Source: Candidatus Tectomicrobia bacterium RIFCSPLOWO2_12_FULL_69_37
Lineage (GTDB): Bacteria > UBA8248
Reading direction: 5' to 3'
Assembly (NCBI GenBank): GCA_001790955.1
Contig: MGDP01000039.1
Coordinates: 193 to 64,192, forward strand
DNA: 64,000 bases
Part shown: piece by piece, positions 3,267 to 37,961 of the stretch
Layout of the letters: every line of letters begins with the position of its first letter
Position numbering within the stretch: position 1 is the stretch's first letter
Made by a program: the position numbers and the translations under genes
Notes under the pieces: model-generated
What the model saw: only the letters and a program-made list of their open reading frames with translations
What the model was told of the DNA's origin: nothing
Database searches by the model: none

Positions 3267-3311
3267 GGGCCGGCGTTCCGGCCCGCCCGGCCTCATAAGA
3301 GGAGGTGCGAG

Positions 3312-3776
3312 ATGTTCGACGGCAAGAAGGTGATCGCCCTGGGGGAGAGGGACGGCATCCCGGGCCCTGTCCTGGCCGAGTGCCTCCAGGCGGCGGGCAC
3401 GGAAGTCGTCTACCAGACGACGGCCTGCTTCGTCTGAACCTCCGCGGGAGCCATGGACCTGGACAACCAGGCCACCATCAAGCAGCTCGTGGATGCGCAC
3501 GGGGCGGAGAACTTGGTGGTGGTGCTGGGGATGAGCGGGGAGGGCGTCCGGATCGCCGCCGAGACGCTCACCACCGGCGACCCCAGCTGGGCCGGGCCCT
3601 TGGCGGGAGTCTCGTTGGGACTCCCGGTGTACCATATCTTGGAGGAGCGGGTCCGCACGCGTCTCCCGGCTGAGATCTACGCCGAGAAGGTGCAGCTCAT
3701 GGAGATGGTGCTCGACGTGGCGCAGATCGAGGACGCGCTCGCCGGGCTGCGCAAGACCCAGGCGAAGCGGAGCTGA
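3312..3776 (+). CDS. grdA: glycine reductase complex selenoprotein A (GrdA), in-frame TGA = Sec at 3435..3437
   Basis: Strong RBS GAGGAGG before ATG 3312. Translation '[61 protein letters not shown]...' matches the canonical GrdA Sec motif CFVUTAAGAMDLENQ. The track ORF 3453..3776 is the in-frame continuation. Confidence 0.9.
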
Positions 3777-3788
3777 GGGGGATCGGCC

Positions 3789-5066: not shown

Positions 5067-5103
5067 GGCCCAGGCGCCCCTGGGCGAGCCAGGAGAGACC
5101 GGA

Positions 5104-6432
5104 ATGCCCACGAACAAGAAGATTCGCGTCGTCCACTACGTCAACCAGTTCTTCGCGGGGGTGGGAGGGGAGGAGAAGGGGGACCATCCCCTGACCTTCA
5201 GGGAGGGCCCCGTGGGCCCCGGCCTCCTGCTCCAGCGCCTGCTGGGGGCGGAGGGGGAGGTGGCCGGCACCCTCTTCTGCGGGGACAACGCCTACGCCGC
5301 CGATCCAGGGGCCGAAGCGGCCGCCCTCGACCACATCGAGCGGCTTGCGCCCGACCTCCTCGTGGCCGGGCCCGCCTTTAACGCGGGCCGCTACGGCCTG
5401 GCCTGCGCCCGCCTCTGCCTCGCCGTGAAGGCGGGCGGCAAGACGGCGGCGGTGACGGGGATGTACCCCGAAAACCCGGGGGTCTCGGCCTGCCGCCGCC
5501 AGGTGCACATCGTCCCCACCGGGGACACCGCCGGGGGGATGGGAGAAGCCCTTCCCAAGATCGTCCGCCTGGGCCTCAAGCTCGCGCGCGGGGAGGAGCT
5601 GGGCCCGGCCCAGGAGGAGGGCTACCTGCCCCGGGGGGTCCGCTACAACGCTTTCGCCGAGGTGCCCGCCGCCCAGCGGGCGGTGGACATGGTGCTCAAG
5701 AAGGTGCGAGGGGAGCCCTTCACCTCGGAGTTCACCTTCCTGGGCTTCGACCGGGTGGCCCCGCCCGCGCCCCTCAAGGGCCTCAAGGGCAAGAAGATCG
5801 CCGTGGTCACCGAGGCGGGGATGGTGCCCCCCGGGAACCCCGACCGCATCCCCGGCTCCCGGGCCTCCACCCATCACTGGAACAAGTACTCCTTCGGGGG
5901 GCGGACGGAGCTCCCCAAGGGCTCCTTCATCTGCATCCACGGGGGCTTCAACACCGTCTTCGTGAACGAGGACCCGGACCGGATGCTCGCCCTGGACGCC
6001 CTCAAGCAGCTCGAGCGGGAGGGCGTCTTCGAGAAGCTCCACGAGGAGTTCCTGAGCACCTGCGGGAACGGCGGCCCCGTCCACGTCATGAAGCAAGTGG
6101 GCCAGGCCATGGCCAAGGAGGCCCGCGCCGCCGGGGTGGAGGGAGTGGTCCTGCCCGCCACCTGAGGGACGGGCACGCGTAGCGGCGCTACGCTGGCGAA
6201 GGAGCTGGAGAGGGAAGGCATCCCCACCGTGCTGGTCACCTGCCTCCCCGACGTGGCGAAGGACGTGGGGGCCAACCGCATCCTCAAGACGCGGGCGGGC
6301 CACTTCCATCATCCCTTCGGGGATCCGAGCCGCCCCGAGGCCTCCGAGCGGCGGTGGCGCCTCGAAGCCACCAAGAAGGCCCTGGAGGTCCTGACCGAGC
6401 CCGTGACGGAGCCCACGGTCTTCGAGTACTAG
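5104..6432 (+). CDS. grdB: glycine/betaine reductase selenoprotein B (GrdB family), in-frame TGA = Sec at 6163..6165
   Basis: N-terminus MPTNKKIRVVHYVNQFFAGVGGEE is canonical GrdB. Track ORFs 5104..6165 and 6229..6432 are in the same frame. Reading through gives '...VLPAT-U-GTGTRSGATLAKELEREGIPTVLVTCLPDVAKDVGANRIL...', matching the GrdB Sec motif (UGTCTRCGAT...). Total 442 aa. Confidence 0.9.
6177..6193 (+). promoter_or_regulatory. candidate bacterial SECIS hairpin for grdB
   Basis: 17-nt perfect hairpin gcgtagc-ggc-gctacgc beginning exactly 11 nt after the UGA. This is the spacing and size of the E. coli fdhF minimal SECIS. Confidence 0.5.
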
Positions 6433-6445
6433 CCCCCCGCAGTAG

Positions 6446-6480
6446 CAAAGGGGGCGGAGGTCCTCCTCCGCCCCTTTGCT
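6446..6480 (+). terminator. GC-rich palindrome downstream of grdB (terminator-like, no T-run)
   Basis: gcaaagggggcggagg-tcct-cctccgcccctttgc, a ~15-bp stem, directly after the grdB stop. It is followed by an AT-rich intergenic region. Confidence 0.45.
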
Positions 6481-6629
6481 CCATCCATAAGATCCGAATA
6501 AGGCAATTTAAATCAATGGGTTAAAAAACATGCCAAAAATTTCCCCTGGATCTCGAATTTCGTCTTTATTTCGTGCTATATTTCGCTTTATATTTGTCTT
6601 CGTGAAATGTCCTCACAGGAGGCTCTGCC

Positions 6630-8171
6630 ATGCTGGCCAAGACGCAGGCGGCGGCGGTTCTCGGGGTGGACGCCCACCCGGTCGAGGTCGAGGTGGACCT
6701 CGCCTCGGGCCTTCCCTACTACTCCACCGTGGGTCTGCCGGACGCCGCCGTGAAGGAAAGCAAGGACCGCATCCGGGCGGCCATCTCGAACACGGGCTTC
6801 ATCTACCCCCTCGGGCGGATCACGGTGAGCCTCTCCCCCGCCGACATGCGGAAGGAGGGGAGCGCCTTCGACCTCCCCATCGCCTTGGGGCTCCTGCGCG
6901 CGAACGGCGCCCTGAACGGGGGCGGGGAGAGGACGCGGGGGCTGATGTTCCTGGGAGAGCTGGCGCTGGACGGCGCCCTCAAGCCCGTGCGCGGGGCGCT
7001 CAACATCGCCGTTCTGGCCAAGAAGCTGGAGATCGAGGGCCTGGTGCTCCCGGCCGAGAACGCTGGAGAAGCGGCCGTAGTGGAAGGGCTCCCCGTCTAT
7101 CCCGTCCGCACCCTGCCCCAGGTGGTGGGCTTCCTGCGGGGGGAGCTCACCATCCCGCCCACGAAGGAAGACCCGGCCTCCCCGGGGAACGCCTCCGGCG
7201 CGTGCGACGACTTCCGGGACATCCGGGGCCAGCACCACGCCAAGCGCGCCCTCGAGGTGGCGGCGGCGGGGGGCCACAACCTCCTCATGATCGGCCCCCC
7301 CGGCAGCGGCAAGAGCATGCTGGCGCGCCGCCTGCCCACCATCCTCCCCCGGCTCACCCTCGAGGAGGCCATCGAGACGAGCCAAGTCTGGAGCGTCCTC
7401 GGGAAGCTCGGGCCGGGGCGCTCGCTCATGGCCGAGCGCCCCTTCCGCGCTCCTCACCACACCATCAGCGACGCCGGGATGGTTGGGGGCGGGACCGTGC
7501 CCCTGCCCGGGGAGGCTTCCCTCGCCCACAACGGGGTGCTCTTCCTGGACGAGCTGCCCGAGTTCCGCAAGAACGTCCTGGAAACCCTGCGGAGCCCGAT
7601 GGAGGAAGGGAAGATCGTCATCAGCCGGGCCCAGGCCAGCCTGGCCTTCCCCGCCCGGTTCATGCTCACGGCGGCAATGAACCCCTGCCCCTGCGGCCAC
7701 CTGGGGGACACCGCGAAGTCATGCTCCTGCACTCCGAAGCTCGTCGAGCGCCACCGCTCGCGCATCTCGGGGCCGCTCCTGGACCGCATCGACATCCACA
7801 TCGAGGTGCCGAGGCTCCCCTGGAAGGAGCTCGCCGAGGAGCCCGAGGGAGAGGGCTCAGAAGCCATCCGCGCCCGGGTCGAGGCCGCCCGCACCAAACA
7901 GCGCGCGCGCTTCACCGGCATCCCGGGCGTCCACTCCAACGCCCACATGGGGGCCGGGCTCATCGGGCGGTTCTGCAAGACGGACGCGGAAGGGAAGCGG
8001 CTCATGCAGCTCGCCGTCCAGCGGCTGGGGCTCTCGGCCCGGGCCTACCACCGGGTGCTGAAGCTGGCGAGGACGATCGCGGATTTGGCGGGAGAGGAGA
8101 GCATCACGCCAGCGCATATCGCGGAGGCGATTCAGTACCGGCAGCTGGACAGGCCGGTGGGGGGGAAGTGA
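6630..8171 (+). CDS. comM: YifB/ComM-family Mg-chelatase-like AAA+ ATPase
   Basis: RBS aggagg. N-terminal Lon-like/ChlI domain, Walker A GPPGSGKS, 'LFLDELPEF', and zinc-ribbon CPCGHLGD...CSC. Confidence 0.9.
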   Translation: MLAKTQAAAVLGVDAHPVEVEVDLASGLPYYSTVGLPDAAVKESKDRIRAAISNTGFIYPLGRITVSLSPADMRKEGSAFDLPIALGLLRANGALNGGGERTRGLMFLGELALDGALKPVRGALNIAVLAKKLEIEGLVLPAENAGEAAVVEGLPVYPVRTLPQVVGFLRGELTIPPTKEDPASPGNASGACDDFRDIRGQHHAKRALEVAAAGGHNLLMIGPPGSGKSMLARRLPTILPRLTLEEAIETSQVWSVLGKLGPGRSLMAERPFRAPHHTISDAGMVGGGTVPLPGEASLAHNGVLFLDELPEFRKNVLETLRSPMEEGKIVISRAQASLAFPARFMLTAAMNPCPCGHLGDTAKSCSCTPKLVERHRSRISGPLLDRIDIHIEVPRLPWKELAEEPEGEGSEAIRARVEAARTKQRARFTGIPGVHSNAHMGAGLIGRFCKTDAEGKRLMQLAVQRLGLSARAYHRVLKLARTIADLAGEESITPAHIAEAIQYRQLDRPVGGK

Positions 8172-8302: not shown

Positions 8303-8824
8303 TCAGAATCCCTGGATTTTCTGATACGCCCGGAGAATCTCCGCAGACTCTTCCGGCGCCATCCCCGAATCCGGCTTCTCCCTCATTCGCCGGATGATTT
8401 CCAGCCTCTCCGCCGTTCCCATCGGCGCGAGCTTCTTTAGATTGACCTCACCATGGCAACGCACGCACTTCAGCAACTCGAGAGAGGCGTGGACCCTGTC
8501 CCGCTCCTGGGCGGAAAGATGGACGTCCGGCAGCTTCTCCATCTTGGCAATGATTCCCTGCAATTCGCTGGATGTTCCGTGGACTCCCAAGAACTTGCGG
8601 TCGCTGTGACAGCTCACGCACTTCTCATCGAATACGGCGAACGGCTGGAGGGAGGCCTCACGGGCCTTTGGGTCGGTTCGTATCGCCTGGATCGCCGTCT
8701 TGACCCTGACAAGCTCGGAGCGCACCTCAAGGGTCAGCTGGGCCACGAAAACGACTACTATCGCGGTCACCAGGACCAGGAACATGGTCAGCATCTCTCT
8801 AAGCCTTGCGGTCATCTCCTTCAT
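8303..8824 (-). CDS. membrane-anchored diheme c-type cytochrome
   Basis: N-terminal TM helix (LTMFLVLVTAIVVVFVAQL). Two CxxCH motifs (CVSCH, CVRCH). Last gene of the fdh cluster. Confidence 0.75.
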   Translation of the reverse strand: MKEMTARLREMLTMFLVLVTAIVVVFVAQLTLEVRSELVRVKTAIQAIRTDPKAREASLQPFAVFDEKCVSCHSDRKFLGVHGTSSELQGIIAKMEKLPDVHLSAQERDRVHASLELLKCVRCHGEVNLKKLAPMGTAERLEIIRRMREKPDSGMAPEESAEILRAYQKIQGF

Positions 8825-8869
8825 GACAACACCCCTTTATGAGCGGTCATCTCCCTTCGGAAGCCGTCC

Positions 8870-10144
8870 TCAGGCCGGGTGAGGCGATTCGCCCTCCACA
8901 TGGATGGGCAGGTTGCGCATCGCCCACCGGAACGCGAGCAGCCCTACGGATATGATGCCGACGGTGATAAAGACCTCCGCCCAGTAGGGATAATAGGTCT
9001 CCCACGGGCGGACGATGACCCCGACCACCGCCACATTGAGGCGATTCCAGACGACGCCGGCAATCACCAGGACTGAGGTTCCGAACAGGCCGGCGCGGTT
9101 GCGAATCAACTCAGGGGTCATAAAGAGTACCAACGGGATGACCGCCCCGATGCCCATCTCCATCCACCACGAGACGGCTTGCGGGGTGAGAGCCAGCGCG
9201 TGGGGGACAGCGCCGCGTCCCACCAGGTCGGCCAGCTTCAGGAACAGGTACACCCCCAGCAGATAGGGCATGACCCTGGCCGCCGCGTGGAGCAGGTCGA
9301 GATGCGCTTTGTATCCGAGCGTTCGCTCGGTCACCAATGACTCAAAGATGACCATCGCTGGAGCGACCATCACGGCGGAGAAGAAGAAGAGCAGCGGCAG
9401 GATCGGGGTGTGCCACAAGGCGTGCAACTTGTGGGGCACGATCAAGAACAGCGACCCGAGCGAAGATTGGTGCAGCGTCGACAAGATCACCCCCGCGGCG
9501 ATCAGCAGGATGGACACCTCCGCGTGCCGCGGCATGATCCGGAGCCGAATCAGCCCCTCCCACACCAGCAGCACGGCGACCATGGCCAGCGCCCATTGGG
9601 GCGAATGGGTCATGGCCAGGGTGAACAGCCCGAGGATAAACACGATGAGCCAGGGAACCATCATCCGCCAGAGGGAATGAAGCTTCTCCAGCCGGTATCG
9701 CTCAAAGACCGACGGGAGCATCTCCAGAAACAGAACGAACGTATAGAGCATGACGCACCAGGATACTTCGAACATCGGGGACTCGTGCTGCCAATTGAAC
9801 ACCGGCTTCCAGATGTTCCAGGGGCGTCCCAGGTCGACGATCAGGCCGAAGATGAACAGGAGATACCCCAGGAAGGCCGTCAAGACGGCGGTCCGGGCCA
9901 TGACGTGGAACCTCTGCCCTCCCAGCAGATACACCGTGCCGGCCATCACGAACCCCCCGGCCGCCAGCGCGATCCCCGCGAGGATATCAAGCCCGATCCA
10001 AATGCCCCACGGGTACCCGTCGCTCAAGTTCGTCACGGCGCCGAGCCCCATCACGAACCGGTAGACGATCAGGACAAGTCCCAAGACCGCCAAAAACCAA
10101 ATCACGCTTTGCCCGGAGAGGAGATTCAGCGATTTGGCTTTCAT
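8870..10144 (-). CDS. NrfD/PsrC-family polytopic membrane subunit (quinone-interacting) of formate dehydrogenase
   Basis: 424 aa, about 10 predicted TM helices, NrfD-like composition. 4-nt overlap with the upstream FeS subunit gene. Confidence 0.8.
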   Translation of the reverse strand: MKAKSLNLLSGQSVIWFLAVLGLVLIVYRFVMGLGAVTNLSDGYPWGIWIGLDILAGIALAAGGFVMAGTVYLLGGQRFHVMARTAVLTAFLGYLLFIFGLIVDLGRPWNIWKPVFNWQHESPMFEVSWCVMLYTFVLFLEMLPSVFERYRLEKLHSLWRMMVPWLIVFILGLFTLAMTHSPQWALAMVAVLLVWEGLIRLRIMPRHAEVSILLIAAGVILSTLHQSSLGSLFLIVPHKLHALWHTPILPLLFFFSAVMVAPAMVIFESLVTERTLGYKAHLDLLHAAARVMPYLLGVYLFLKLADLVGRGAVPHALALTPQAVSWWMEMGIGAVIPLVLFMTPELIRNRAGLFGTSVLVIAGVVWNRLNVAVVGVIVRPWETYYPYWAEVFITVGIISVGLLAFRWAMRNLPIHVEGESPHPA

Positions 10145-10950
10145 GATTCACCTCCCGAGGAGGAGCCGTTCTTCTCATCGCGTCCATTTCGGATCCGCCG
10201 CTGGATGACCCACGAAACGGCCCCCAAAGCGACTGCCAGCCCGATCTTGACGTGGGGCACCACCTGCATGGCCGTCTTGGTGTACTCGCGCAGCGAAATC
10301 TTCGGGAGGTCGGTGCGGTAGCCCAGCACCTCGAACGGCACGTTGGACAGGTGAAGCACGCAGGTCCCGCCGACCTCGTCCTTCCCATAGATGTGGTGGA
10401 CGTACCCTCGCGGGTTGCGGTGGATCCGGTTCTCGGCCTCTGCGATGAGATCCTCCCGCTCGCCGAAGACGATGGCGTCCGTCGGGCAGACCTTCGCGCA
10501 GGCCGGCTCCTCCCCCGCCGCCACCCGGTCGGCGCACATGGTGCACTTGGTGATTTTGGGGATGGCCTTGTCCCACTCGAAGCGCGGGACCAGGAACGGG
10601 CAGGCAAGCTGGCAGTAGCGGCAGCCGAGACACCGATCCGGGTCGTAAACGACGGGACCCTCCTTGGTCTTCTGCAACGCGGACACAGGACATGCCGTGG
10701 CGCACGAAGGCTCAATGCAGTGGAAGCACTGAAGATGGCCGAACACCCACTCGAAGCGCCCGTTGGTCTGCGCTTCGTTGTAGGTCACGACCCGCCACGT
10801 CTTCGACGAAAGATCCCGCGGGTTTTGATACCCCTTGGGGGACGCGAAGAAGCGGGTCTTCTCGGCCGGAAGCTCGTTCCACTCCTTGCAGGCCACCTGG
10901 CAGCCCCGGCAGCCGACGCAGCGCGTCACGTCGATGAGGAGCGCTTTCAC
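10141..10950 (-). CDS. fdhB: formate dehydrogenase iron-sulfur subunit (FdnH-like, 4x[4Fe-4S], C-terminal TM anchor)
   Basis: Multiple CxxCxxCxxxCP ferredoxin motifs (CVGCRGCQVAC, CFHCIEPSCATACP, CLGCRYCQLACP, CTMCADR...CAKVCP). C-terminal hydrophobic helix. Overlaps fdhA by 4 nt. Confidence 0.85.
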   Translation of the reverse strand: MKALLIDVTRCVGCRGCQVACKEWNELPAEKTRFFASPKGYQNPRDLSSKTWRVVTYNEAQTNGRFEWVFGHLQCFHCIEPSCATACPVSALQKTKEGPVVYDPDRCLGCRYCQLACPFLVPRFEWDKAIPKITKCTMCADRVAAGEEPACAKVCPTDAIVFGEREDLIAEAENRIHRNPRGYVHHIYGKDEVGGTCVLHLSNVPFEVLGYRTDLPKISLREYTKTAMQVVPHVKIGLAVALGAVSWVIQRRIRNGRDEKNGSSSGGES

Positions 10951-13900
10951 GACGCACCTCCCTTCGCCTTATAGACGTTGCAGAGGAACGCCTTGTACTC
11001 CGGGATCATGGTGTTGGCGTCCCCCACGTGCGGCGTCAGGACGTTCGCGCTGTCGCCCTTGACGATGCCTTGGTAGCCGAAGTGCCAGATAACGCCGACC
11101 TCGTGGACGATCTTCCCGTTGTGCCGGAAGGGCTCGAAGCGGCGCGTCACCAGGGCGTAGCCGCTCATCTTGCCCCGCGCCGTCTCCAGGGTGACGCGGT
11201 CTCCGTTCTGAACGCCCTTCTGCCGGGCGAGGTCCACTCCCATCTCGACGAAGACATCCGGCACCAGCTCCGCCAGCCAGGGCAGGTTGCGCGTCATCGC
11301 CCCGGCCTGCCAGTGCTCGCTCACGCGGTAGGTCGTCCCCACGATCGGGAAGCGGTCGGCGGTCCCGACGGCGTTCATCTCGGGTGCGTCCTTGTGCCAG
11401 AGCTTGATGGCCGGGTTGACCTGCTGCCGCGACATCATGTTCGGCAGCGGGCTCTCCAAGGGCTCATAGTGCTCGGGCAGAGGCCCGTCGTTGAGGTTGC
11501 CAGCGAAGAGCCACGCGTGGCCGTCCGGCTTCATGATGAAGGGATGCTTCTCCCCCGGCGGCCACGGGCCGTCAGGCACGTCGCCCTCCCACTGTTTTTT
11601 CCCGGCGTTCCAGCGGATGACCCACCGCTTGGGGTTCCAGGGCTTGCCGGTGGGGTCGACCGAGGCGCGGTTGTAGAGGATCCGCCGGTTGACCGGCCAG
11701 CACCACGCCCAATCGGGGTAGAGGCCGATCCCGTTCATGGCGTCCCGTTTGCTCCGCCGGGCCATCTTGTTGTCCTTCTTCTCCGGGCCGGCGTAGCTGT
11801 TGCAGTAGAGCCAGTTGCCAGAGCAGGTGGAGCCGTCGTCCTGCAGCAGGGCGAAGCCGGGAACCTGCTCGCCCTTCTTGTACTGTCTGCCGCCGACGGT
11901 CTTCTCCTGGGTGAAGTAGCCGTTGATTTCCTTCGCCACCCGGTGCACGTCGGGCTCCTTGCGGACGTCGACCTCCTCGCCCGTGCCGTAGTCCCAGGCG
12001 AGGCGGGTGATGGGCTCGGGGAAGACGCCGCCCGCCGCGTACTCCTTCTTCACCGCCTTGCACAGGGCGTCCAGGATCCACAGGTCGGACCGGGAGTTCC
12101 CCACCGGATGGACCGCCGCGTAGCGCCACTGCGCCCAGCGGGCGCTGTTCGTGATGCTCCCTTCTTTCTCCACCGAAGACGCCGACGGTAGGAGGAATAT
12201 CTCGGTCTTGATGTCGGCGGGCTTCACGCCCGGGCGCTTCCAGATCGATGCCGTCTCCGTCTCCCAGAGATCGACGGCCACCATCCAATCGAGCTTCTCC
12301 AGCGCCTTGATCTCCTTGTTCGTGTTCGGCCCGCCGACCGCCGGGTTCTGACCGAAGAGCATGAGACCCTTGATCTGGCCTGCATACATCGCCTCGAACA
12401 GCGATATCCACGAGTAGTCGCCGCTGCGCTTGGGGATGTAGCTGAACGCGAAGTCGTTCTCCCGAGCGGCGTGGCCGCCGTACCAGGCTTTGAGCAGCGA
12501 GACGATGTACTTCGGATAGTTACCCCACCAGTTGGCCGATTTCGGGTCGTTCGTCCTGGGTGTGTTGCTCGCCAGGTAGGCCGCGAGCGATTGGTCGGCG
12601 GCGGTGGGCGAGGCCAGGTAGCCCGGCAGGATGTGGAAGAGCAGGGCCATGTCGGTGGAGCCCTGCACGTTGGACTCGCCCCGGAGGGCGTTCACCCCCC
12701 CGCCCGCCAAGCCGACGTTGCCCAGGAGGAGCTGGAGGATCGCGTAGGTCCGGATGTTCTGGGTCCCGTGCGTGTGCTGGGTCGCCCCCATGGCGTAAAG
12801 CCAGGTGCCCACGCGGTCGGGCGCCCAGGTCGAGGTGTAATGGCGGCAGACCTGGAGATAGACATCCCGCGGCGCGCCGGTGATGTTGCACACCGTGTCC
12901 ACGTCATAGCGCTGAAAATGTTTCTTCAACAGCTGGAACGCGCAGCGGGGGTGTTGGAGGGTCATGTCCCGCACCGGCATGCCTTTCCCATCGAGCTCGT
13001 ACGCCCAGTGGGACTTGTCGTAGCTGCGAGACGCCGGGTTGTAGCCCGTGAACAGGCCGTCATCGAATCCGTACTTTTCAGAGATGATGAACGAGGCATT
13101 CGTGTAGTTGAGGACGTAGTCCTTCTGGACGAAATCGTTCTGGAGAGCATAGTTGATCATCCCGCCCACGAAAGCGATGTCGGTGCCGCTACGGAACTTG
13201 CAGTAGACGTCGGCGAAGGAAGAGGTACGGGTGTAGCGCGGATCCGCACTGACGACGATGGCCCCCTTCTCTTTCGCGCGTGTTATCCATTTCGTGGCGA
13301 TGGGATGGTTCTCCGCCGCGTTCGAGCCCATGATCATGATCACGTCGGCGTGGACCATGTCGCTCCAGTGATTGGTCATCGCGCCCCGCCCGAAGGTCGC
13401 CGCCAAACTGGCGACGGTGGAGCTGTGTCATATCCGCGCCTGGTGCTCCAGGTAGGCGACCCCCAGCGCCCGGGCGAGCTTCGAGTAGAGGTAGCACTCC
13501 TCGTTGTCCAGCGCCGCGCCGCCGAGGCACGCGATGCCCTCGGTTCGGTTCACGGTCCTGCCCCCCTCCTCGCGGCGGAAGGTGGCGTCGCGGGTGCGCT
13601 TGATGCGCTTGGCGATCTCCGGGACGGCCCACTCCCAGGTCTTCTCCTCCCAGCGGCTACCCCCCGGGGCCCGGTAGAGGACGCTCCGCAGGCGCCGCTC
13701 GTTCACCGCCACCTGATAGAGGGCCATGCCCTTGGAGCAGAGCGAGCCTTCGTTGATGGGGTGATCGGGGTCGCCTTCGATGCTGACCACCTTCCCGTCC
13801 CTGGCAGAGACGATGAGCCCGCACCCCACCCCGCAGTACGGGCATATGGTCGTCGACTGCTTGGTGCGAACCGTCTTCATCGGGGGTGTTTGGGCGGCGT

Positions 13901-13994
13901 GGGCCCTCCCTTTTTGAGGGCCGAAAAGAGAGACGGCCGTCCCCAGTGCGCTTCCGCCCGTTGCCCCCAAAAAGGTACGCCGCGAAATCTTCAT
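10947..13994 (-). CDS. fdhA: formate dehydrogenase catalytic subunit (FdnG/FdoG-like, molybdopterin, TAT-exported), in-frame TGA = Sec at 13428..13430
   Basis: TAT signal MKISRRTFLGATGG. Fe-S cluster motif CPYCGVGCG. Track ORFs 13428..13994 and 10947..13406 are in frame, separated by TGA plus 7 codons. Read-through gives '...YLEHQARI-U-HSSTVASLAATFGRGAMTNHWSDM...', almost identical to E. coli FdnG 'NQARVUHGPTVASLAPTFGRGAMTNHW'. Total 1015 aa, the same length as FdnG. Confidence 0.9.
13396..13415 (-). promoter_or_regulatory. candidate SECIS hairpin for fdhA
   Basis: Minus-strand mRNA has stem gucgcc / ggcgac with a GU-containing loop, starting about 12 nt after the UGA. Confidence 0.4.
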
Positions 13995-14098
13995 CGCCCT
14001 CCCCTCCAGTCACGATTCACCTGGCACCGTCTTCGCTTGCAGCGATTCATCCTCACCTGCGTCATCCGCGCCCCAGGCCCGTGCGCCTCCTTTCCCCC

Positions 14099-14965
14099 TC
14101 AGGGGTCCACCGAAGCGGCCGCGAGGAGCGGATGCGGGGCAAATCCGGCGCTCGCCGCGAGGAGGTCGAGCGCGCGGGTCCCCAAGTAGAACACATCAAA
14201 GGAAAATGCTTCGGCCGATAAGGCGGACATGACCTCCTTGATGTATTTCCCGCAGCGGGCGCAGGTGTGCGCGCGGAAGGACGGCTCGGCCTCTGCGCTG
14301 ATCAAATTAAGCGCTTCCTGGTCCTCGTTGAGGCAATAAGGGCACTGAAGTCGGCCGTAGGGCCAGTGCGTCCCGCAGAGCAGGCACCACAGCGTCCGGC
14401 GGCCCTCCACCGACTGGATGTGCGCCAAGGCCGGCCAATTCCCGCACACCGGGCAATGGCCCCGGTGCCACTTCCCCAGGTCCACCTCCCGGGTCAGCTC
14501 CAGGGCCGCCTGCGCGCGGAATGGACGCGCCAGGTAGACCGCAATGAAAGTGAGCAAACCTTCATCCACGCCCAGTCTCTTCGCTGCCCCGAGAATCTCC
14601 TCAGACCGACCACGGAACACAAGCGAGACGAAATCTTTCGGCGGGATTTCCCCCGCCGCGAATGCCCCTTGGATCCGTCCGAGGGCGTCCTCGCGGTCAG
14701 GCAGACGCTTTCTCAGCAGGTCCAGCAAGACCGATGCAACTTCTTTGCAAGCTTTGGGAGCGAATCGATATTCTGAGGCGCGAAGAACAGAGCGTCCGCT
14801 TTCCAGAAAACCGGCGATTGAATCGGGAAATTCCTGAGGAGGCTGGGATTCAAACAGGGAGGCGCTGCGGAATTCCTGAAGAAAATTTCCTATTTCCGCA
14901 TGAATCGGTGGGAAGGCGGAAAGGCCTTTCTCGAGGGAAGAATCGTTGCGCGGTGGGGCTTTCAT
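14099..14965 (-). CDS. fdhE: formate dehydrogenase accessory protein FdhE
   Basis: C-terminal motifs 'WHRGHCPVCGNWP', 'LWCLLCGTHW', 'CPYC', 'CARCGKY' match FdhE. The track ORF extends to 15343 but would overlap fdhD. Start placed at the internal Met (MKAPPRND...). Confidence 0.7.
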   Translation of the reverse strand: MKAPPRNDSSLEKGLSAFPPIHAEIGNFLQEFRSASLFESQPPQEFPDSIAGFLESGRSVLRASEYRFAPKACKEVASVLLDLLRKRLPDREDALGRIQGAFAAGEIPPKDFVSLVFRGRSEEILGAAKRLGVDEGLLTFIAVYLARPFRAQAALELTREVDLGKWHRGHCPVCGNWPALAHIQSVEGRRTLWCLLCGTHWPYGRLQCPYCLNEDQEALNLISAEAEPSFRAHTCARCGKYIKEVMSALSAEAFSFDVFYLGTRALDLLAASAGFAPHPLLAAASVDP

Positions 14966-15203
14966 GGGCTCTGCCCCCTTCGGGAGGGGCCGGCTCCCTG
15001 AAAACCGCCAAAACCACCCTTGGGAGGAGCAATTTCCTTGCCACGCAGCCCAGCCATGTCCCCCAAGAAAGCGAGCCGCTGCCCGTGGTAAATACCCCAC
15101 GCTCCTGCAACCCGCGCGGGAAGATGAGACAAAAAATCCCTTCCCCGGGACTGAATGCCACATCTCCTTCGACCCCGGGACGAGCGAATTTCTGGTTCTC
15201 TCC

Positions 15204-16061
15204 TTACCGGACGCTCCTCTCCTTGGTACAACCAAAATTAAGGGATGAGGCGTCCGAGCATGCCCAGGCGGTTTTCCCTTCCCAGCACGAACCCGTGCCG
15301 GAGGCGAGACCCTCGGGGTGGGCGTAGACAGTAAATTGGTCATGTGTCACATAGCCGATGAGGGTGATCCCTAGGCGCTTCGCCAAGTCGATCGACAAGC
15401 TGGTCGGCGAGGTCCGGGAAATCACGAAGGGAACCTTCATCTGCGCCGCTTTCCGGAGCATTTCTGAAGAAATGCGCCCGCTGCTCGCCAGGATATGCTC
15501 GCGCGGATCAATTCCCCTCACGAGCACTTCCCCGCGGAGCTTGTCCAGGGTGTTGTGACGACCGATATCCTCTGCCACCGCGATCAGCCCTTCTCCGTCG
15601 AAGAGCGCCGCCGCGTGGATTCCGCGAGATTGGTGGTAGAGTTCGGCCGCTTCGATCAGCTGATGCATCAGCGACGGCACCGCATCCGGGTTTAGGACGC
15701 CTTCGGCGCGGATGGGAGCATAATCCCGAACATCCAGGTGGAACGTCACTCCGCCGGCGCAGCCCGAGGTCAAAATCCGCGGCCTCGATGACGGGAGAGG
15801 CCGATTCAGCTCGACATGGGCCTCGAATTCATTCTCGTCCACCTCAAGGCTCTTCACATCGCCAAGCGAATCAATGACCCGCTCGAAGGCAAGAAAGCCC
15901 AGAGCCAGCTCCCGGAGCTTCAGCGGGGTGCACATCAACGTCGCAAGCTCCTTGTTCTCCACCAAAATGCGGAAGGCGATTTCGCGCACCACGGGAATCT
16001 TGGCGGGTGAGAAAACTCCATTCGCATAGCGGTAGATAGTAAAGTCCATGTTGCCATCCAT
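15204..16061 (-). CDS. fdhD: formate dehydrogenase accessory sulfurtransferase FdhD
   Basis: Motifs 'SGCAGG', 'EDIGRHNTLDKLRG', 'ITLIGYV...FTVYAHPEGL' align with E. coli FdhD (EDVGRHVALDKL, LTLVGF, ATVYTHPQRL). Start chosen at MDGNMDF. Confidence 0.75.
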   Translation of the reverse strand: MDGNMDFTIYRYANGVFSPAKIPVVREIAFRILVENKELATLMCTPLKLRELALGFLAFERVIDSLGDVKSLEVDENEFEAHVELNRPLPSSRPRILTSGCAGGVTFHLDVRDYAPIRAEGVLNPDAVPSLMHQLIEAAELYHQSRGIHAAALFDGEGLIAVAEDIGRHNTLDKLRGEVLVRGIDPREHILASSGRISSEMLRKAAQMKVPFVISRTSPTSLSIDLAKRLGITLIGYVTHDQFTVYAHPEGLASGTGSCWEGKTAWACSDASSLNFGCTKERSVR

Positions 16062-16468: not shown

Positions 16469-16921
16469 TCACTTCTCCCGGGGAGGCATCAGGGTGCGGA
16501 TATAGGCGACCAGGGACCGGACCTCGTCTTCGCTGAGGGCCTCTCCCCAGGCGGGCATGGCGGGGGACTTCTGGACCGCGGCCCCTCCTCGCTTGATGAT
16601 CTCGAACATCGCCGCGTCCGTGATCCGGCTGGCGAACGCCTTGTCCGAGTAATTGCGCGGCTTGGGATTCAGGGCGGCGGCGGCCGGCCCATCCCCCCTG
16701 CCCGAGGGGCCGTGGCAAACGGCGCACAACTGCTGGAACTTCTCCTTCGCGAGCCTCAAATCCACCGGCGCGGCCGAGGCGGACACAGAGGGCCAGAACG
16801 CCAGGGCGAGGAGGCAGGCGAGGCCGCGCCGGCGAAGGAGGGAAACCCTCTTCTCATCGGGAAACTTGGCCAATGCGTCCCCCGCCTCCGGGCGGCAAGA
16901 AAATCCCCCGTGCAACTCCAT
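16469..16921 (-). CDS. monoheme class I c-type cytochrome (c551/c552-like)
   Basis: Signal peptide, single CAVCH, Met-rich C-terminal region (SPAMPAWG). Start set at the internal Met; upstream part of the track ORF is unlikely to be coding. Confidence 0.6.
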   Translation of the reverse strand: MELHGGFSCRPEAGDALAKFPDEKRVSLLRRRGLACLLALAFWPSVSASAAPVDLRLAKEKFQQLCAVCHGPSGRGDGPAAAALNPKPRNYSDKAFASRITDAAMFEIIKRGGAAVQKSPAMPAWGEALSEDEVRSLVAYIRTLMPPREK

Positions 16922-16998
16922 ACGAAGAAAAAGGCCCCTCGTCCAGCGCCTTCTCGAGCCGGACGAGGGGCAAGCAGACCGGGTCCCCCGATAAGCGT

Positions 16999-17343
16999 CT
17001 ATTTCTTCGCGGGATGGCACTTCACGCATTCGGTGATTGGGAAGGCCTTCTGCCCGTTGTGACAGGCGCCGCAGTATTTCCCCGCGAGGAGGTCGGCGAC
17101 CATGATTGGCTTCCCCTCGGTGGTCGCGCCCTTCTTCATCTGGAAGATCTGGACATGACAGGCCGTGCACTCCGGGTTTTTCGCCTGGTGCGTCTTATGG
17201 CTGAAGGTGACGGGCGTCTGGTCCTTGGTCTGCGTGTACTTGATGTCCTCGGGAACCGGCATCTGCGAGTAGGCCCACACCGCGCTCAAGGTGACCGCCA
17301 GAACGGCCGCCGCCGCCAAACCCCATCGCGTCCATTTGCCCAT
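16999..17343 (-). CDS. triheme cytochrome c7 (PpcA-like)
   Basis: Signal peptide MGKWTRWGLAAAAVLAV. Three CxxCH motifs (CTACH, CGACH, CVKCH). 'VTFSHKTHQ' is a c7/c3 hallmark. About 114 aa. Confidence 0.7.
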   Translation of the reverse strand: MGKWTRWGLAAAAVLAVTLSAVWAYSQMPVPEDIKYTQTKDQTPVTFSHKTHQAKNPECTACHVQIFQMKKGATTEGKPIMVADLLAGKYCGACHNGQKAFPITECVKCHPAKK

Positions 17344-17486
17344 GTTCAAAGCTCCTTCTCCTTGTTCCCGAGAGACACAACCCCAGACCCTGCAGCCTCG
17401 GCTCTCCTGAGACGAGAGAACTTCGGCGCCATGATACTCAACCCAAGCCCGTCTGCAACCGGGAACGACCGCCAGCGCCAATCGTC

Positions 17487-19037
17487 CTATCGAACTTTCT
17501 TCGCCTCGATATCCGCCTTCGTGCCCAGCCCCAGCGTGTACTCGAAGGAGACGTGGTGGCGGCGGGTGGTTACGTGATCGTCGTGGATAGCGAAGGCGAT
17601 GGGATAGGTCTCCCCGTCCTTCAGGATCACGTCATCCTCGGGATGGCCCGTGTCGAGCTTGCGCTTGAGGATGAGGGTATATTTGCCCATCTTCTCGCCG
17701 GCCTTCCTCAAGAAGACCCCGTAGGCCTGGATGTCGCCCCGGCTCCCGTCCGGCGCCCGGAGGACGCGCTGGTAGAGGATGTCTCCCTCCTTGGGCTTGT
17801 AGACCTTGGGATCATAGGGAACCGCATTCTTGCCCAGGGTCGTGAGGAAGGCGATGGTCTCCTGGTCCTTGATCACCGGCAGGGGGTTCTTCCCGCCCTG
17901 GATGGCATACTCGCCCCCGCCCAGCCGGCCGGAGGGAACCGCCTGGGGATTGAACATGAAGCCCTTGGGGGGGGTCGCGTTCAGGTCCGCGGGCCGCTGC
18001 ATCTGCCAGAGGCCCTTCCCCCTGTCGCCGTTCCGGTAATCGAAGATCCACATGTCGTCGGCGTAGCCGATGTGGCCTGCGCGCGCGGCCCGCCACATCC
18101 ACATGTCGAGGAACTGGCCCTTCTTCCGCATCCCGGCCAGCTCTTCCTTGCCCTTGAGGAGCGACCAGCGCCCCTCGGCCTCGGTCGCGCCCTTCTTCTC
18201 CTTGGGGTCGCCCGCCTGGGCCGCGTTGCGGGTGGCGAGGAGGTACTTCCGGATGTCGCTCTGCTTCGGGAAGACCGATTTCACGCCCTTGTTGTTGAGC
18301 GCGTCGTAGGGCATGTCCCGCATGCTGTTGTGGCAGGTGATGAAGCAGCCGGCCGACTGGAAGCCGGCGGGGGTGCCCGCGTCCGCCGGGACGTGGCCGG
18401 GGGCGCCCTGCTTGTAGCCGAGGAGGAAGGTGAGCCGGTCCTCATAGAGCCCGGGGGACTTATCGGGCTTGAACCCGCCGTAGCCCACCCACTTCTTGCC
18501 GTCGAAGCGCATCGCGTTGTGGTAGGCGCCGGGCTCCTCGCTCTCCCACTGGAGCCAGAAGTACATGTTCTGGGCGTCGTAGGCGGCCTTGACGGCGAGG
18601 TCGACGGTGGGGCGCTTGCCGGGGATCGGCTTGTCCTCGGCGGGCCCCTTGGGGACGAGCTTCTTGCCGAGCGCCTCTTCGTCCGGCCCCGCTCCTCCCG
18701 TCACATGGCAGGTGCGGCAGGCGACGCCCGTCTTGACCACCGGCCCGCCCAGATGCGTAAAGTCCTTCTGGGGGTTCACCAGGCGATCCCAGGAGGCTTG
18801 GCCGGGGTAGAAGAGACGGATGCTCCTCGCCGGGATACCTTCCCATTTCACGGGGACATCCTTAGGCTGAAACGTCGGGATCTCCGGCTTGACCTCACTT
18901 CTCGCGGCCGCCCAGGATGGAGCCGCACCTAGCAGAAGGACCGCCGTACTCACGAGGGCAAGCACGAAAGAGGCCAGGCCCCGACCCAGGCGCTGTTCAG
19001 CAACAGGTCCAGCATCTCGATGAAAAAATGCCATCAT
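17487..19037 (-). CDS. diheme c-type cytochrome fused to an EB_dh/DOMON-like heme-binding domain
   Basis: Signal peptide. CRTCH and CFITCH motifs. C-terminal ~200 aa resemble the ethylbenzene-dehydrogenase gamma-subunit-like (EB_dh) fold. Confidence 0.55.
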   Translation of the reverse strand: MMAFFHRDAGPVAEQRLGRGLASFVLALVSTAVLLLGAAPSWAAARSEVKPEIPTFQPKDVPVKWEGIPARSIRLFYPGQASWDRLVNPQKDFTHLGGPVVKTGVACRTCHVTGGAGPDEEALGKKLVPKGPAEDKPIPGKRPTVDLAVKAAYDAQNMYFWLQWESEEPGAYHNAMRFDGKKWVGYGGFKPDKSPGLYEDRLTFLLGYKQGAPGHVPADAGTPAGFQSAGCFITCHNSMRDMPYDALNNKGVKSVFPKQSDIRKYLLATRNAAQAGDPKEKKGATEAEGRWSLLKGKEELAGMRKKGQFLDMWMWRAARAGHIGYADDMWIFDYRNGDRGKGLWQMQRPADLNATPPKGFMFNPQAVPSGRLGGGEYAIQGGKNPLPVIKDQETIAFLTTLGKNAVPYDPKVYKPKEGDILYQRVLRAPDGSRGDIQAYGVFLRKAGEKMGKYTLILKRKLDTGHPEDDVILKDGETYPIAFAIHDDHVTTRRHHVSFEYTLGLGTKADIEAKKVR

Positions 19038-19096
19038 GTGCTACCTCCTTTTTCTTGGGACGGCCCAAAACCGCCCCCGAGAACCCGGCGGATGCC

Positions 19097-20356
19097 CTAA
19101 ACCCCGCCCGGGGACTTCCTCTCCATCTCCCGGAGCTTCAGGAAAAGAAGCAACGCCAGAACAACGGTCAGCACAATCGGAAGAATGACCCACCTCCTGC
19201 GGGCCTCAAACTCCTTCAGGGCGCCAAGCGCCGTTTGCAGGGCTCCCTGGGCCACTTTATTGCCAATCTGAGCCTCTTTCTCAACCTCCTTCAGCGCGAA
19301 GGAATGGACCTGAGTGCGCACCTTGATGAGCATCGTGCGGGCCTCCTTCATGCTGAACTTGGCCTCCGAGACTTCCATGCCCAGCCGCTCGGCCTTCTCC
19401 AGCTCTTCCGTCGCGCGGTGGATCAGGCTCTTGAGATCCTCGATCTGCTTGCGCATCCCGGCGGCCACCCGCAACTGCGGCGACCCCGCGGCGTGGCAGC
19501 TGACACACACCGCCGGGGACTTGTCGCCGATCATGGCCTCGGATACGCGCACCACCTTGTGGTTCGAGTGGCAGACCACGCACTCGGGAAGCTTCATCCG
19601 CTCGAACGCCGGCTTATGCGGGCTCTTCACGAAGAGATCCCGGTTGTTCACGTGGCACTGCCCGCACATCCCGCTCACCGAACTCACGGCCGGGGGGAAA
19701 GCGCCGTGGTTGCCGTGGCAGTCGTTGCAGGTGGGGGCCGAGAGCTCCCGCTTCTTGATCAAGAGATCGGCATGGACGCTCTGGAGGTAGTTCTCGAGCT
19801 GATTGGTCGGGATCTTGTAATCCTTCATGTATGCCTTGTCCGCGTGGCACTTGGAGCAAGTGCCGGCCACCTTCGGCGCGTAGACGGTGGAATTGGCATG
19901 CGCGGCGGGGAGGATGCCGTGCGCGTTATGGCAGCTCGCGCAAGTCGCGACCTTCACGTCCCCTTTCGCAAGGCGCTGCCCGTGCACGCTCGTCTGGTAG
20001 GCCTTGTGCTGATCGACCGCGATGGACGGGCTGAACCGGCGCATGAAGGCGAGATCCCCGTGGCACTTGTCGCACAGGGCGGGGATCTCGGCCGGCTTGG
20101 GCACGCCGGTGTAGCCCTTCTCCTTGGACATAGAGACTTTGACGTCGAAGGAGGCGGGATCCCCGCCGTGGCAATTCACGCAGGAGAAGCCCTTCTGCGC
20201 ATGGATGTCGGCCTCCAGCATCTTCGCGGGGGCGCCCAGCTTCCCCGGCAGCGCGCGGTGGCACTGAACGCAGGAGTCGGGCTGGGGCGCCGCCGCCCGG
20301 CTCTCCGGAGCCGCGAGGAGAAACACGGCCGCCGCCCCCAGGGCCGAAAACACCAT
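19097..20356 (-). CDS. nonaheme c-type cytochrome with C-terminal membrane anchor
   Basis: Start MVFSALGAAAVFLLAAP (signal peptide). Nine CxxCH motifs (CVQCH, CVNCH, CDKCH, CASCH, CSKCH, CNDCH, CGQCH, CVVCH, CVSCH). C-terminal TM helix. The 901-aa track ORF merges this gene with the antisense of cytochrome b. Confidence 0.75.
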   Translation of the reverse strand: MVFSALGAAAVFLLAAPESRAAAPQPDSCVQCHRALPGKLGAPAKMLEADIHAQKGFSCVNCHGGDPASFDVKVSMSKEKGYTGVPKPAEIPALCDKCHGDLAFMRRFSPSIAVDQHKAYQTSVHGQRLAKGDVKVATCASCHNAHGILPAAHANSTVYAPKVAGTCSKCHADKAYMKDYKIPTNQLENYLQSVHADLLIKKRELSAPTCNDCHGNHGAFPPAVSSVSGMCGQCHVNNRDLFVKSPHKPAFERMKLPECVVCHSNHKVVRVSEAMIGDKSPAVCVSCHAAGSPQLRVAAGMRKQIEDLKSLIHRATEELEKAERLGMEVSEAKFSMKEARTMLIKVRTQVHSFALKEVEKEAQIGNKVAQGALQTALGALKEFEARRRWVILPIVLTVVLALLLFLKLREMERKSPGGV

Positions 20357-20388
20357 CCGCCGCCAAGAATTTCCGCGCACCGCAGACC

Positions 20389-23595: not shown

Positions 23596-23642
23596 GGGAC
23601 TTCAGCCGGATTCATTTGGGGACGCCCCAGCCGTAAGGAGAC

Positions 23643-37948: not shown

Positions 37949-37961
37949 GGAGAAGATAAAG

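Follow-up and report, generated by a model that had tools for sequence, protein, structure and literature searches.

In the 64,000-nucleotide stretch of contig MGDP01000039.1 analyzed here (hereafter, the window), six genes on the minus strand make up a formate dehydrogenase (FDH) locus: fdhD, an fdhE-like gene, fdhA, fdhB, a gene of the NrfD family, and a cytochrome gene that we call cytc2. We hold with moderate confidence that this locus encodes a periplasm-facing, membrane-bound, selenocysteine (Sec)-containing FDH of four structural proteins, in which the di-heme cytochrome c encoded by cytc2 serves as a second electron port. The window has a G+C content of approximately 66% and is identical to contigs of the genome labeled "Candidatus Tectomicrobia bacterium RIFCSPLOWO2_12_FULL." An earlier note on this DNA, made from its letters alone, had located these genes, with fdhD and fdhE upstream of the structural genes; all of them were found on the minus strand, although the fdhE-like gene was recognized only by sub-threshold matches.

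Results

Linkage of cytc2 to the membrane subunit

Our comparative analysis revealed that cytc2 lies directly after the NrfD-family gene in 16 of 16 distinct loci, distributed over at least six phyla and with NrfD identity down to 42%. Nine look-ups starting from cytc2 found the NrfD gene immediately upstream in seven (L008, L009, L091, L092, L094, L095, and L096); of the other two, one is a contig that opens at cytc2 itself and thus carries no information on this point, and the second, L001, is the single exception and holds a 5′-truncated copy. At L092, the contig covers just the C-terminal end of the NrfD gene, and fdhE and fdhD follow downstream of cytc2. A scan of 185,579 species genomes with the NrfD alignment yielded 80 loci. 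Eight of these reach 49% identity or more, and each has a cytc2 homolog immediately behind its NrfD gene; they stem from Planctomycetota, Chromatiales, Ignavibacteriaceae, Gemmatimonadales, Zixibacteria, and unclassified metagenome-assembled genomes (MAGs). The other 72 loci, which are more distant, have no such homolog there. An insertion predicted to add two transmembrane (TM) helices to the NrfD-family protein was present in every cytc2-linked NrfD gene (16/16) and absent from all others (0/73). That cytc2 belongs to the membrane module is supported by these patterns of gene order and co-occurrence.

The full arrangement, FdhA(Sec)-FdhB-NrfD-cytc2, was found in the window and in L010, L011, L014-L017, and L091, that is, in Tectomicrobia, Planctomycetota, Chromatiales, Zixibacteria, and unclassified MAGs. 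Five further cases (L013, L094, L095, and L096 twice) comprised the trio of iron-sulfur (FeS) protein, insertion-bearing NrfD protein, and cytc2 without FdhA. In the two of these that were read for this feature, L013 and L094, the FeS protein is longer and carries its own twin-arginine signal. The trio stands alone at these loci and would therefore be a self-contained, periplasm-facing unit, for which quinone and c-type cytochromes are the only redox partners in evidence. The two trios of L096 (NCBI GCA_046497505.1; 7656-10555 and 14115-16993) lie about 3.5 kb apart, and the NrfD protein of the window shares 54% and 45% identity with theirs. In L094 and L095, the latter from Gemmatimonadota, the trio has as neighbors a Rieske (L094)/cytochrome b gene pair and a number of very large multiheme cytochromes, some of which are fused to a Ni_hydr_CYTB domain.

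FdhA-FdhB-NrfD operons having neither cytc2 nor the full insertion were found in Dehalococcoidia (L018, L020, and L023). The spacing at the insertion site is 38 residues in L018 and L023, intermediate between the 27 and 75 residues seen otherwise. In all three loci, FdhA is without the HQARI-U-H motif, and the frame delimited by BLAST contains two in-frame stops; these enzymes may be Ome-like or otherwise divergent.

A different small cytochrome accompanies part of the NrfD genes that lack the insertion. In 12 of these 10-helix loci, a c7-like tri-heme cytochrome gene comes right after the NrfD gene, and in a thirteenth, L079, it lies upstream; loci with this gene include L024, L028, L030, L031, L040-L042, L048, L051, L055, L069, and L079. 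These tri-heme genes are homologous to the gene at 16999-17343 of the window. Many of the 10-helix HybA-like/HybB-like pairs have neither an FDH nor a hydrogenase nearby: HybO and HybC were close to only one of the 72 other NrfD loci and absent from the window locus. The combination of an FeS protein, a HybB-like NrfD protein, and a small cytochrome c suggests a broader, largely undescribed class of complexes, to judge from gene content.

The nearest relative, L001 (a Logan SRR22388342 contig, 2145-6969), is 85% identical at the DNA level in the flank. There, an NnrS gene on the other strand takes the place of everything from fdhD to the NrfD gene, leaving cytc2 beside NnrS and comM with no FDH. 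We read this cytc2 copy as a remnant of deletion or replacement because homology to the window begins within the gene and the remaining ORF (open reading frame) has lost its anchor. The lack of the fdhD-to-NrfD stretch also implies that the FDH operon sits in a variable region. In L001, moreover, an element bearing a large serine recombinase splits the comM gene.

The cytc2 cytochrome family

The cytc2 product runs from basic residues through a hydrophobic helix to the motifs CVSCH and CVRCH, in keeping with the membrane-anchored diheme cytochrome c that the earlier note had described at 8303-8824. Since positive residues precede the TM helix, the heme domains should face the periplasm. The hydrophobic N-terminal segment is present throughout the family alignment. 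Cytochrome matches in Pfam and NCBIfam were all sub-threshold, the c7/c3-type Pfam match being marginal (E = 0.009). A word-indexed search had returned two proteins only, making cytc2 look like an orphan; this was overturned by an exhaustive HMMER search, which found 55 cluster representatives (about 30 of full length), and by a profile search that reached 112 clusters, of which every named one is called "hypothetical protein."

Across a family diverged to about 25% identity, a Met residue follows each CxxCH by approximately 25 residues (M95 in 27 of 28 members and M147 in 25 of 28), providing candidate distal ligands. The AlphaFold2 model, with a predicted local distance difference test score (pLDDT) of 89, shows a long N-terminal helix over residues 2-50, combining anchor and stalk, and two small helical lobes. 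Its fold resembles cytochrome cz, SorB, and class-I cytochromes, and the profile search matched reaction-center cytochrome subunits as well as cytochrome cz. The conserved heme motifs and Met residues, the confident model, and the class-I folds support the conclusion that cytc2 represents a real protein family. Its two hemes are probably class-I-like, His/Met-ligated, and of fairly high potential. Such ligation would imply a relatively high potential, and hence a favored electron direction out of the complex.

The NrfD-family subunit and its FeS partner

Neither of the two membrane proteins resembles FdnI by BLASTP (E > 2), and the Pfam match of the larger one is to NrfD, not to Ni_hydr_CYTB, which agrees with the earlier view that the membrane module is not the FdnI cytochrome b. 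The profile check proposed for 8870-10144 gave 62.8 bits for NrfD (PF03916; threshold, 25.8), spanning residues 37-376 and profile positions 2-309 of 313. The best NCBIfam matches were HybB (286.6 bits; NF008133 equivalog cut-off, 450) and HmcC (262.4 bits), both sub-threshold. Identity to Escherichia coli HybB is 30%. Among 25 HybB positions proposed to form the quinone site or proton pathway (list from PMC8076601), 18 are identical in the window protein and 2 are conservatively replaced (K303 and D306). The identical residues comprise D53, D104, S122, E126, and S231 of the quinone site and H80, R84, Y94, Y134, E141, E148, H225, S227, S228, K239, H241, E329, and R368 of the proton pathway. 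R84, Y94, E141, and H225 correspond to HybB R89, Y99, E148, and H184, which have been reported as important for H2 oxidation (PMC8076601). Most of these residues, but not H80 or H241, are conserved over 89 homologs (16 of the cytc2 type and 73 others).

The insertion relative to HybB comprises 48 residues, and hydropathy together with the AlphaFold2 model places its helices at residues 153-179 and 182-200 (pLDDT 83-88 there). The model as a whole has 12 long helices. The earlier note had counted 10 TM helices; hydropathy and the model predict 12, with the extra two inside the insertion. The predicted count falls outside the range of 8 to 10 helices stated for the family (PMC8076601). Foldseek placed the protein closest to ActC of alternative complex III (ACIII) among solved structures (6btm_C, 8k9e_C, 6f0k_C, and 6lod_C; probability 1.00, TM-score 0.62-0.68), and a search of PDB sequences with the NrfD profile matched no chain.

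FdhB, encoded directly upstream, is the adjacent four-cluster FeS partner expected of a "dimeric redox module." This ferredoxin shares 42% identity with E. coli FdnH, has no signal peptide, and carries a C-terminal hydrophobic tail with basic residues behind it. Its best NCBIfam matches (HmcB; HybA, 235 bits; and the FDH beta subunit) were all below their cut-offs.

FdhA and its selenocysteine codon

The earlier note had described FdhA as a 1015-aa, Tat-exported Sec homolog of FdnG, and each part of this description withstood closer analysis. The 826 residues beyond the in-frame TGA scored, on their own, 1092.4 bits against TIGR01553 (FDH-N alpha subunit; cut-off, 814.2), and the 188 residues before it scored 193.8 bits over profile positions 1-194. 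The N-terminus carries the twin-arginine motif SRRTFL followed by an Fe4S4 domain (Pfam Molybdop_Fe4S4, 76.9 bits). The closest solved structures were the tungsten FDH of Desulfovibrio gigas (1h0h) and FdhAB of Desulfovibrio vulgaris (6sdr), both at about 1140 bits, and then E. coli FdnG (1kqf; 944 bits), to which FdhA is 47% identical. The gene has a single in-frame TGA, at codon 189 in the motif HQARI-U-HSS, which aligns with the Sec ("X") of 1h0h and with the TGA at codon 196 of E. coli fdnG. A TGA occupies the same position in five of five homologous fdhA genes from the same operon type in other phyla (L010, L011, L014, L015, and L017). The assignment of FdhA as a Sec-containing FdnG/FdhA homolog is therefore supported by sequence comparison. 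The proposed alignment with the Sec of FdnG held, whereas the number given for that residue did not: it is Sec196 and not Sec140, which we take to be FdhF numbering.

An alignment of six fdhA homologs provided good comparative evidence for a putative Sec insertion sequence (SECIS) after UGA189. The hairpin begins 11 nt past the UGA and lies inside the range (13396-13427) that had been suggested for it. Its 7-bp stem (alignment columns 15-21 and 27-33) is 100% paired in the six sequences, with compensatory changes at third codon positions (15:33 as GC, AU, CG, and UA; 18:30 as CG, GC, and GU). None of 500 shuffles reached the score of the stem, and slid registers were much worse. Folding the single sequence after the UGA gave no significant signal (z = -0.56) and put the stem in another register, around an 8-nt loop; we rejected that register in favor of the 7-bp stem and 5-nt loop because covariation across the six homologs supports these. 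In bacterial SECIS elements, a spacing of about 11 nt between the UGA and the minimal helix is known from work on E. coli fdhF. A scan of the whole window against Rfam at gathering thresholds gave no match and no curated SECIS family, and ARAGORN found no tRNA, hence no tRNA-Sec, in the window; nor were selA, selB, or selC seen there.

Two other genes of the window contain an in-frame TGA. In grdA (3312-3776, plus strand), it lies at 3435-3437 within CFV-U-TSAGAMD, and in a GrdB-like gene (5104-6432, plus strand), it lies at 6163-6165 with 89 more codons in frame. Both belong to a glycine/sarcosine/betaine reductase cluster that includes a Gly_reductase gene (3789-5066), and public gene calls split or truncate them. 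The TGA codons in grdA and grdB argue that the organism is likely Sec-decoding.

Gene layout and neighboring respiratory genes

The coordinates of the genes are listed in Table 1. As the earlier note had it, fdhA and fdhB overlap by 4 nt (10947-10950, GTGA), as do fdhB and the NrfD gene (10141-10144, ATGA); the ORF coordinates bear this out. The GTG start codon of fdhB lies inside the first overlap. A gap of 45 nt precedes cytc2, with a purine-rich, Shine-Dalgarno-like AAAGGGG ahead of the gene, and a search of this gap for a terminator-like site found none. A convergent comM/yifB-like gene on the plus strand (6630-8171) closes the cluster. The start of fdhD is that of the public gene calls on the identical contigs. 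For the fdhE-like protein, TIGR01562 reached 46 bits (cut-off, 187.65), and Pfam FdhE_central and FdhE_C were also under their cut-offs; homologs of this protein lie beside the same type of operon in L010, L011, L014-L017, and L092.

Table 1. Features of the FDH locus and of the respiratory genes upstream of it (window coordinates)
Feature	Position	Strand	Description
fdhD	15204-16049	-	281 aa; sulfurtransferase accessory protein; Pfam FdhD-NarQ, 231.8 bits; TIGR00129, 177.6 bits (cut-off 140.9)
fdhE-like accessory gene	14099-14965	-	288 aa; four CxxC pairs; FdhE matches all sub-threshold
fdhA	10947-13994	-	Predicted catalytic Mo/W-bis(pyranopterin guanine dinucleotide) (bisPGD) subunit; 1015 codons including Sec189; TIGR01553
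Tat signal peptide of FdhA	13896-13994	-	MKISRRTFLG...RAHA; Pfam TAT_signal weak (E = 0.0046)
In-frame TGA (Sec codon)	13428-13430	-	Same alignment position as Sec in 1h0h and as codon 196 (TGA) in E. coli fdnG
Putative SECIS hairpin	13398-13416	-	7-bp stem, 5-nt loop (AGUUU); covariation in six homologs
fdhB	10141-10950	-	269 aa; four-[4Fe-4S] ferredoxin subunit; C-terminal TM tail anchor; Pfam Fer4_11, 84 bits
NrfD-family, HybB-like membrane subunit	8870-10144	-	424 aa; 12 TM helices predicted; presumed quinone site; Pfam NrfD
Clade-specific insertion in the NrfD subunit	9545-9691	-	Residues ~152-200; two extra TM helices predicted; absent from E. coli HybB
cytc2	8303-8824	-	173 aa; membrane-anchored di-heme cytochrome c; unannotated family
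cytc2 N-terminal signal-anchor TM helix	8729-8794	-	Sequence, AlphaFold2 helix, family-wide hydrophobic N-terminus
cytc2 heme motif 1	8606-8620	-	CVSCH (C69, C72, H73); invariant in 28/28 family members
cytc2 heme motif 2	8453-8467	-	CVRCH (C120, C123, H124); 26/28 family members
Rieske protein	21477-22085	-	Upstream of fdhD
Cytochrome b	20389-21480	-	Upstream of fdhD
Nona-heme cytochrome c	~19097-20356	-	~419 aa; C-terminal TM helix
EB_dh-domain protein	17487-19037	-	One CxxCH; upstream of fdhD
c7-like tri-heme cytochrome	16999-17343	-	Upstream of fdhD
Mono-heme cytochrome c	16469-16873	-	Upstream of fdhD

The respiratory genes at 16469-22085 and the FDH genes may form one large electron-transport cluster, and the cytochromes, EB_dh-domain protein, cytochrome b, and Rieske protein encoded there are candidate partners of the FDH complex. 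A 901-aa ORF at 19097-21802 on the minus strand was discarded as an artifact, given that the frame of the nona-heme gene stays open through the cytochrome b gene, as indicated by the profile of G+C at third codon positions. Divergently from the Rieske/cytochrome b cluster, the plus strand at 22501-25835 carries a deca-heme cytochrome gene (10 CxxCH; Paired_CXXCH) followed by a gene for an outer-membrane porin of the MtrB/PioB type (397.9 bits), a pair that by its domain content is a predicted extracellular electron-transfer conduit. The Rieske/cytochrome b and porin-cytochrome genes were considered as constant companions of the FDH-linked operon and rejected as such; they are not conserved at the other FDH-linked loci. 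A second deca-heme cytochrome gene (342 aa, 10 CxxCH) lies at 36920-38888 on the plus strand, followed by a gene for a tandem-rhodanese protein.

Discussion

Proposed mechanism

In the mechanism that we favor, the sequences strongly support export of FdhA by the Tat system, with FdhB, which has no signal peptide of its own, carried along and held at the membrane by its C-terminal tail. They likewise support recoding of UGA189 through the hairpin 11 nt downstream, and formate would be oxidized at the predicted Sec-ligated Mo/W-bisPGD center. The NrfD-like subunit is by sequence a cofactor-less protein of the HybB/HmcC/QrcD type, which keeps the residues proposed for the quinone site of HybB and for its proton channel on the cytoplasmic side. 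From FdhA, electrons would follow the FeS wire of FdhB to a quinone bound close to the periplasmic side of this subunit. Protons may be drawn from the cytoplasm, which would render this step electrogenic, by analogy with QrcD, for which such uptake has been shown, and with HybB and HmcC, for which it has been proposed. The TM helix of cytc2 may dock on the clade-specific two-helix insertion, and the cytochrome would form the second port, linking the FeS wire or the quinol site to periplasmic c-type cytochromes. The apparent His/Met hemes suggest that flow through this port is outward, from formate or quinol to cytochrome c. We infer from the sequences that the output is dual, to quinone and to cytochrome c. 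The trio itself could be a self-sufficient quinone/cytochrome c module onto which the FDH catalytic subunit was plugged.

Several points weigh against this mechanism. The HybB and HmcC scores of the NrfD subunit are under their cut-offs, and the confidence of its structural model is moderate (mean pLDDT 75). The insertion and cytc2 may occur together owing to a single ancestral event within one clade rather than to repeated selection, so that the division of 16/16 against 0/73 is not a count of 16 independent events. Binding of cytc2 to the complex is deduced from synteny and co-occurrence, and the ligation and potentials of its hemes are read from conserved Met residues and fold similarity only. 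At L001, a cytc2 copy that has lost its membrane-anchor region lies beside NnrS with no FDH.

Alternative explanations

The most serious alternative is a plain formate:quinone oxidoreductase of the FdhABD/FqoABC kind, with cytc2 acting as a stabilizer, an assembly subunit, or a safety valve. We consider it unlikely, although it accords with the conserved quinone-site residues of the NrfD subunit, with the cytochrome-free NrfD-anchored FDHs of the three Dehalococcoidia loci, and with the description of FqoABC and FdhABD as three-subunit enzymes (PMC8076601; PMC4046663). The retention of both heme motifs and the candidate Met ligands in a family as diverged as that of cytc2 points instead to a redox role, and the trio lacking FdhA has no obvious electron entry or exit besides the cytochrome.

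The converse proposal, a formate:cytochrome c oxidoreductase with cytc2 as the main exit and the NrfD-like protein as a mere anchor or proton path without quinone turnover, receives little credence from us. Precedents exist: monoheme cytochrome c553 is the electron partner of FDH in sulfate-reducing bacteria, according to the passage of PMC4782131 that cites Yagi (1979), and FdhABC3 uses a cytochrome subunit of its own (PMC13397495). The strand of the locus also carries more c-type cytochrome genes immediately upstream. A mere anchor would not, however, be expected to keep quinone-site and channel residues of the HybB/QrcD type so strictly in 89 homologs.

It appears very improbable that the cytochrome is a Qrc-like input (cytc2 to FeS to NrfD to quinone) or that the complex runs in reverse, in proton motive force-driven CO2 reduction or in reverse electron flow from iron oxidation. 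In Qrc, Hmc, and Nhc, cytochrome c does enter the same FeS/NrfD pair (PMC6303296; PMC8076601). The PioAB/MtrAB-like porin-cytochrome pair and the Rieske/cytochrome b cluster also adjoin the locus in the window, as a Rieske/cytochrome b cluster adjoins the trio in L094 and L095, but the other FDH-linked loci have no Rieske or porin genes within 8 kb. The apparent His/Met hemes would moreover be too high in potential for menaquinone reduction without energy input, and with FdhA attached, formate, at about -420 mV, is the obvious donor. Hardly tenable, finally, is the notion that cytc2 is a mere neighbor, an independent anchored cytochrome outside the FDH system: the 45-nt gap before it, where the upstream genes overlap by 4 nt, and its position beside NnrS and comM in L001 would fit, but the synteny across 16 loci, the covariation with the two-helix insertion, and the anchorless state of the L001 copy, which starts exactly where homology to the window starts, as for a deletion remnant, all stand against it.

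Implications

NrfD-family subunits are central to many complexes of anaerobic respiration, and the way in which they tie redox reactions to the proton gradient is still being worked out. The four-protein complex that we favor would add a new combination, in which a Sec-containing FDH, a HybB-type quinone module, and a dedicated di-heme cytochrome c come together, and its predicted two-helix insertion would put the membrane subunit beyond the 8 to 10 helices given in reviews. The strict co-occurrence of insertion and cytochrome leads to a specific structural hypothesis, namely that the insertion is the docking site for the cytc2 anchor.

The trio without a dehydrogenase may provide a small, free-standing link between quinone and cytochrome in Gemmatimonadota and other poorly studied phyla. 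As a tentative extension, which we would not yet call likely, the 12-helix trio could be an unrecognized minimal quinol:cytochrome c (or reverse) oxidoreductase, and the FDH-linked form could be a living example of the ancestral state behind Qrc and ACIII. If so, the trio would be a small functional alternative to bc1 and ACIII, and the ancestral state would have been an active molybdoenzyme already wired to the quinone pool and to c-type cytochromes. On that reading, electrons from formate could in this organism skip complex III and go straight to oxidases, to nitrogen-oxide reductases, or to the porin-cytochrome conduit next to the locus.

Close homologs of the NrfD-like subunit are variously labeled "Ni/Fe-hydrogenase cytochrome b subunit," "HybB-like protein," or, at JGI, "formate dehydrogenase iron-sulfur subunit." Together with "hypothetical protein" for cytc2, such labels would mislead metabolic reconstructions from metagenomes.

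Comparison with known systems

The catalytic half of the enzyme follows the pattern of E. coli FdnGHI (1kqf), with a Tat-exported Sec alpha subunit, a beta subunit that holds four clusters and ends in a TM tail, and a periplasmic active site. The membrane half differs, given that FdnI is a di-heme cytochrome b, whereas the locus encodes an NrfD-family protein and a cytochrome c, neither of which is FdnI-like. In FdnI, transmembrane hemes lead to a quinone reduction site on the cytoplasmic side of the membrane; a site of the NrfD type lies near the periplasmic side.

NrfD-anchored FDHs have precedents; Pereira et al. reportedly predicted such enzymes, as "FdhABD," from genomes in 2011. The name FdhABD is used for them in PMC4046663, and the link between NrfD and FDH was restated for SAR324 (PMC4782131). 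FqoABC was described from Actinobacteria, Chlorobi, Crenarchaeota, Chloroflexi, and Deltaproteobacteria (Calisto & Pereira 2021, PMC8076601). Like the window locus, FqoABC and FdhABD have FdnG and FdnH homologs beside a cofactor-less NrfD-like gene, and they are proposed formate:quinone oxidoreductases. FqoABC differs in having three subunits and an 8-helix FqoC, where the window encodes a HybB-like protein with 12 predicted TM helices and the conserved fourth gene, cytc2. HybA and HybB of E. coli hydrogenase-2 gave the best NCBIfam matches for FdhB and the membrane subunit, and the quinone-site and channel residues are kept; the scores, however, are below the equivalog cut-offs, and the locus has no hydrogenase genes but does have the 48-residue insertion and the cytochrome c partner.

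FDHs with a cytochrome of their own offer a second comparison. FdhABC3, and possibly FdhM, of Desulfovibrio/Nitratidesulfovibrio likewise combines a periplasmic Sec-FDH with a dedicated c-type cytochrome in the operon. FdhC3, however, is a soluble tetraheme c3, whereas cytc2 has two heme motifs, conserved Met residues, and a TM anchor. The hemes of FdhC3 are bis-His-ligated, and FdhABC3 is not known to have a membrane subunit. The FdhM cluster, which we set beside the window locus by description only, reportedly encodes a cytochrome c and an unidentified membrane protein (PMC13397495).

Among the known NrfD complexes that bear cytochromes, namely Qrc, ACIII, Hmc, Nhc, and Nrf (PMC8076601, PMC6303296), the closest parallels are architectural. 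In Qrc, quinone is reduced with protons taken from the cytoplasm via QrcD, by a pathway common to HybB and HmcC (PMC6303296). QrcABCD has the same four types of module as the window locus: an anchored cytochrome c, a molybdopterin-family subunit, a four-cluster FeS protein, and an NrfD protein of the 10-helix clade. The molybdopterin subunit of the window is, however, a bona fide Sec-FDH by sequence, its cytochrome has two class-I-like hemes, and the NCBIfam equivalogs for Qrc all failed (QrcD, 103 against 570; QrcC, 74 against 400; QrcB, 25-33 against 440). Qrc differs further in QrcB, which no longer carries its cofactor, and in QrcA, a multiheme entry point of the c3 type.

ACIII (ActABCDEF) shares the best fold match, ActC, as well as an FeS subunit and anchored periplasmic c-type cytochromes; the earlier note had likened the architecture to that of ACIII and Qrc, and the likeness is supported at the level of fold and module composition. 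The locus lacks a second NrfD-like subunit (ActF), ActD, the pentaheme ActA, and the lipid-anchored ActE, and its FeS protein carries no fused, degenerate molybdopterin domain. Without FdhA, the trio of FeS protein, NrfD protein, and cytc2 has just the parts that a quinol:cytochrome c oxidoreductase would need at a minimum, as in ACIII. A literature search found no description of an FDH with both an NrfD subunit and a di-heme cytochrome, of the cytc2 family, or of a 12-helix variant. By sequence comparison, the locus is a new, uncharacterized variant of the NrfD-anchored FDHs whose modules parallel those of Qrc and ACIII, and its molybdopterin subunit, unlike the counterpart in those complexes, is predicted to be catalytically active.

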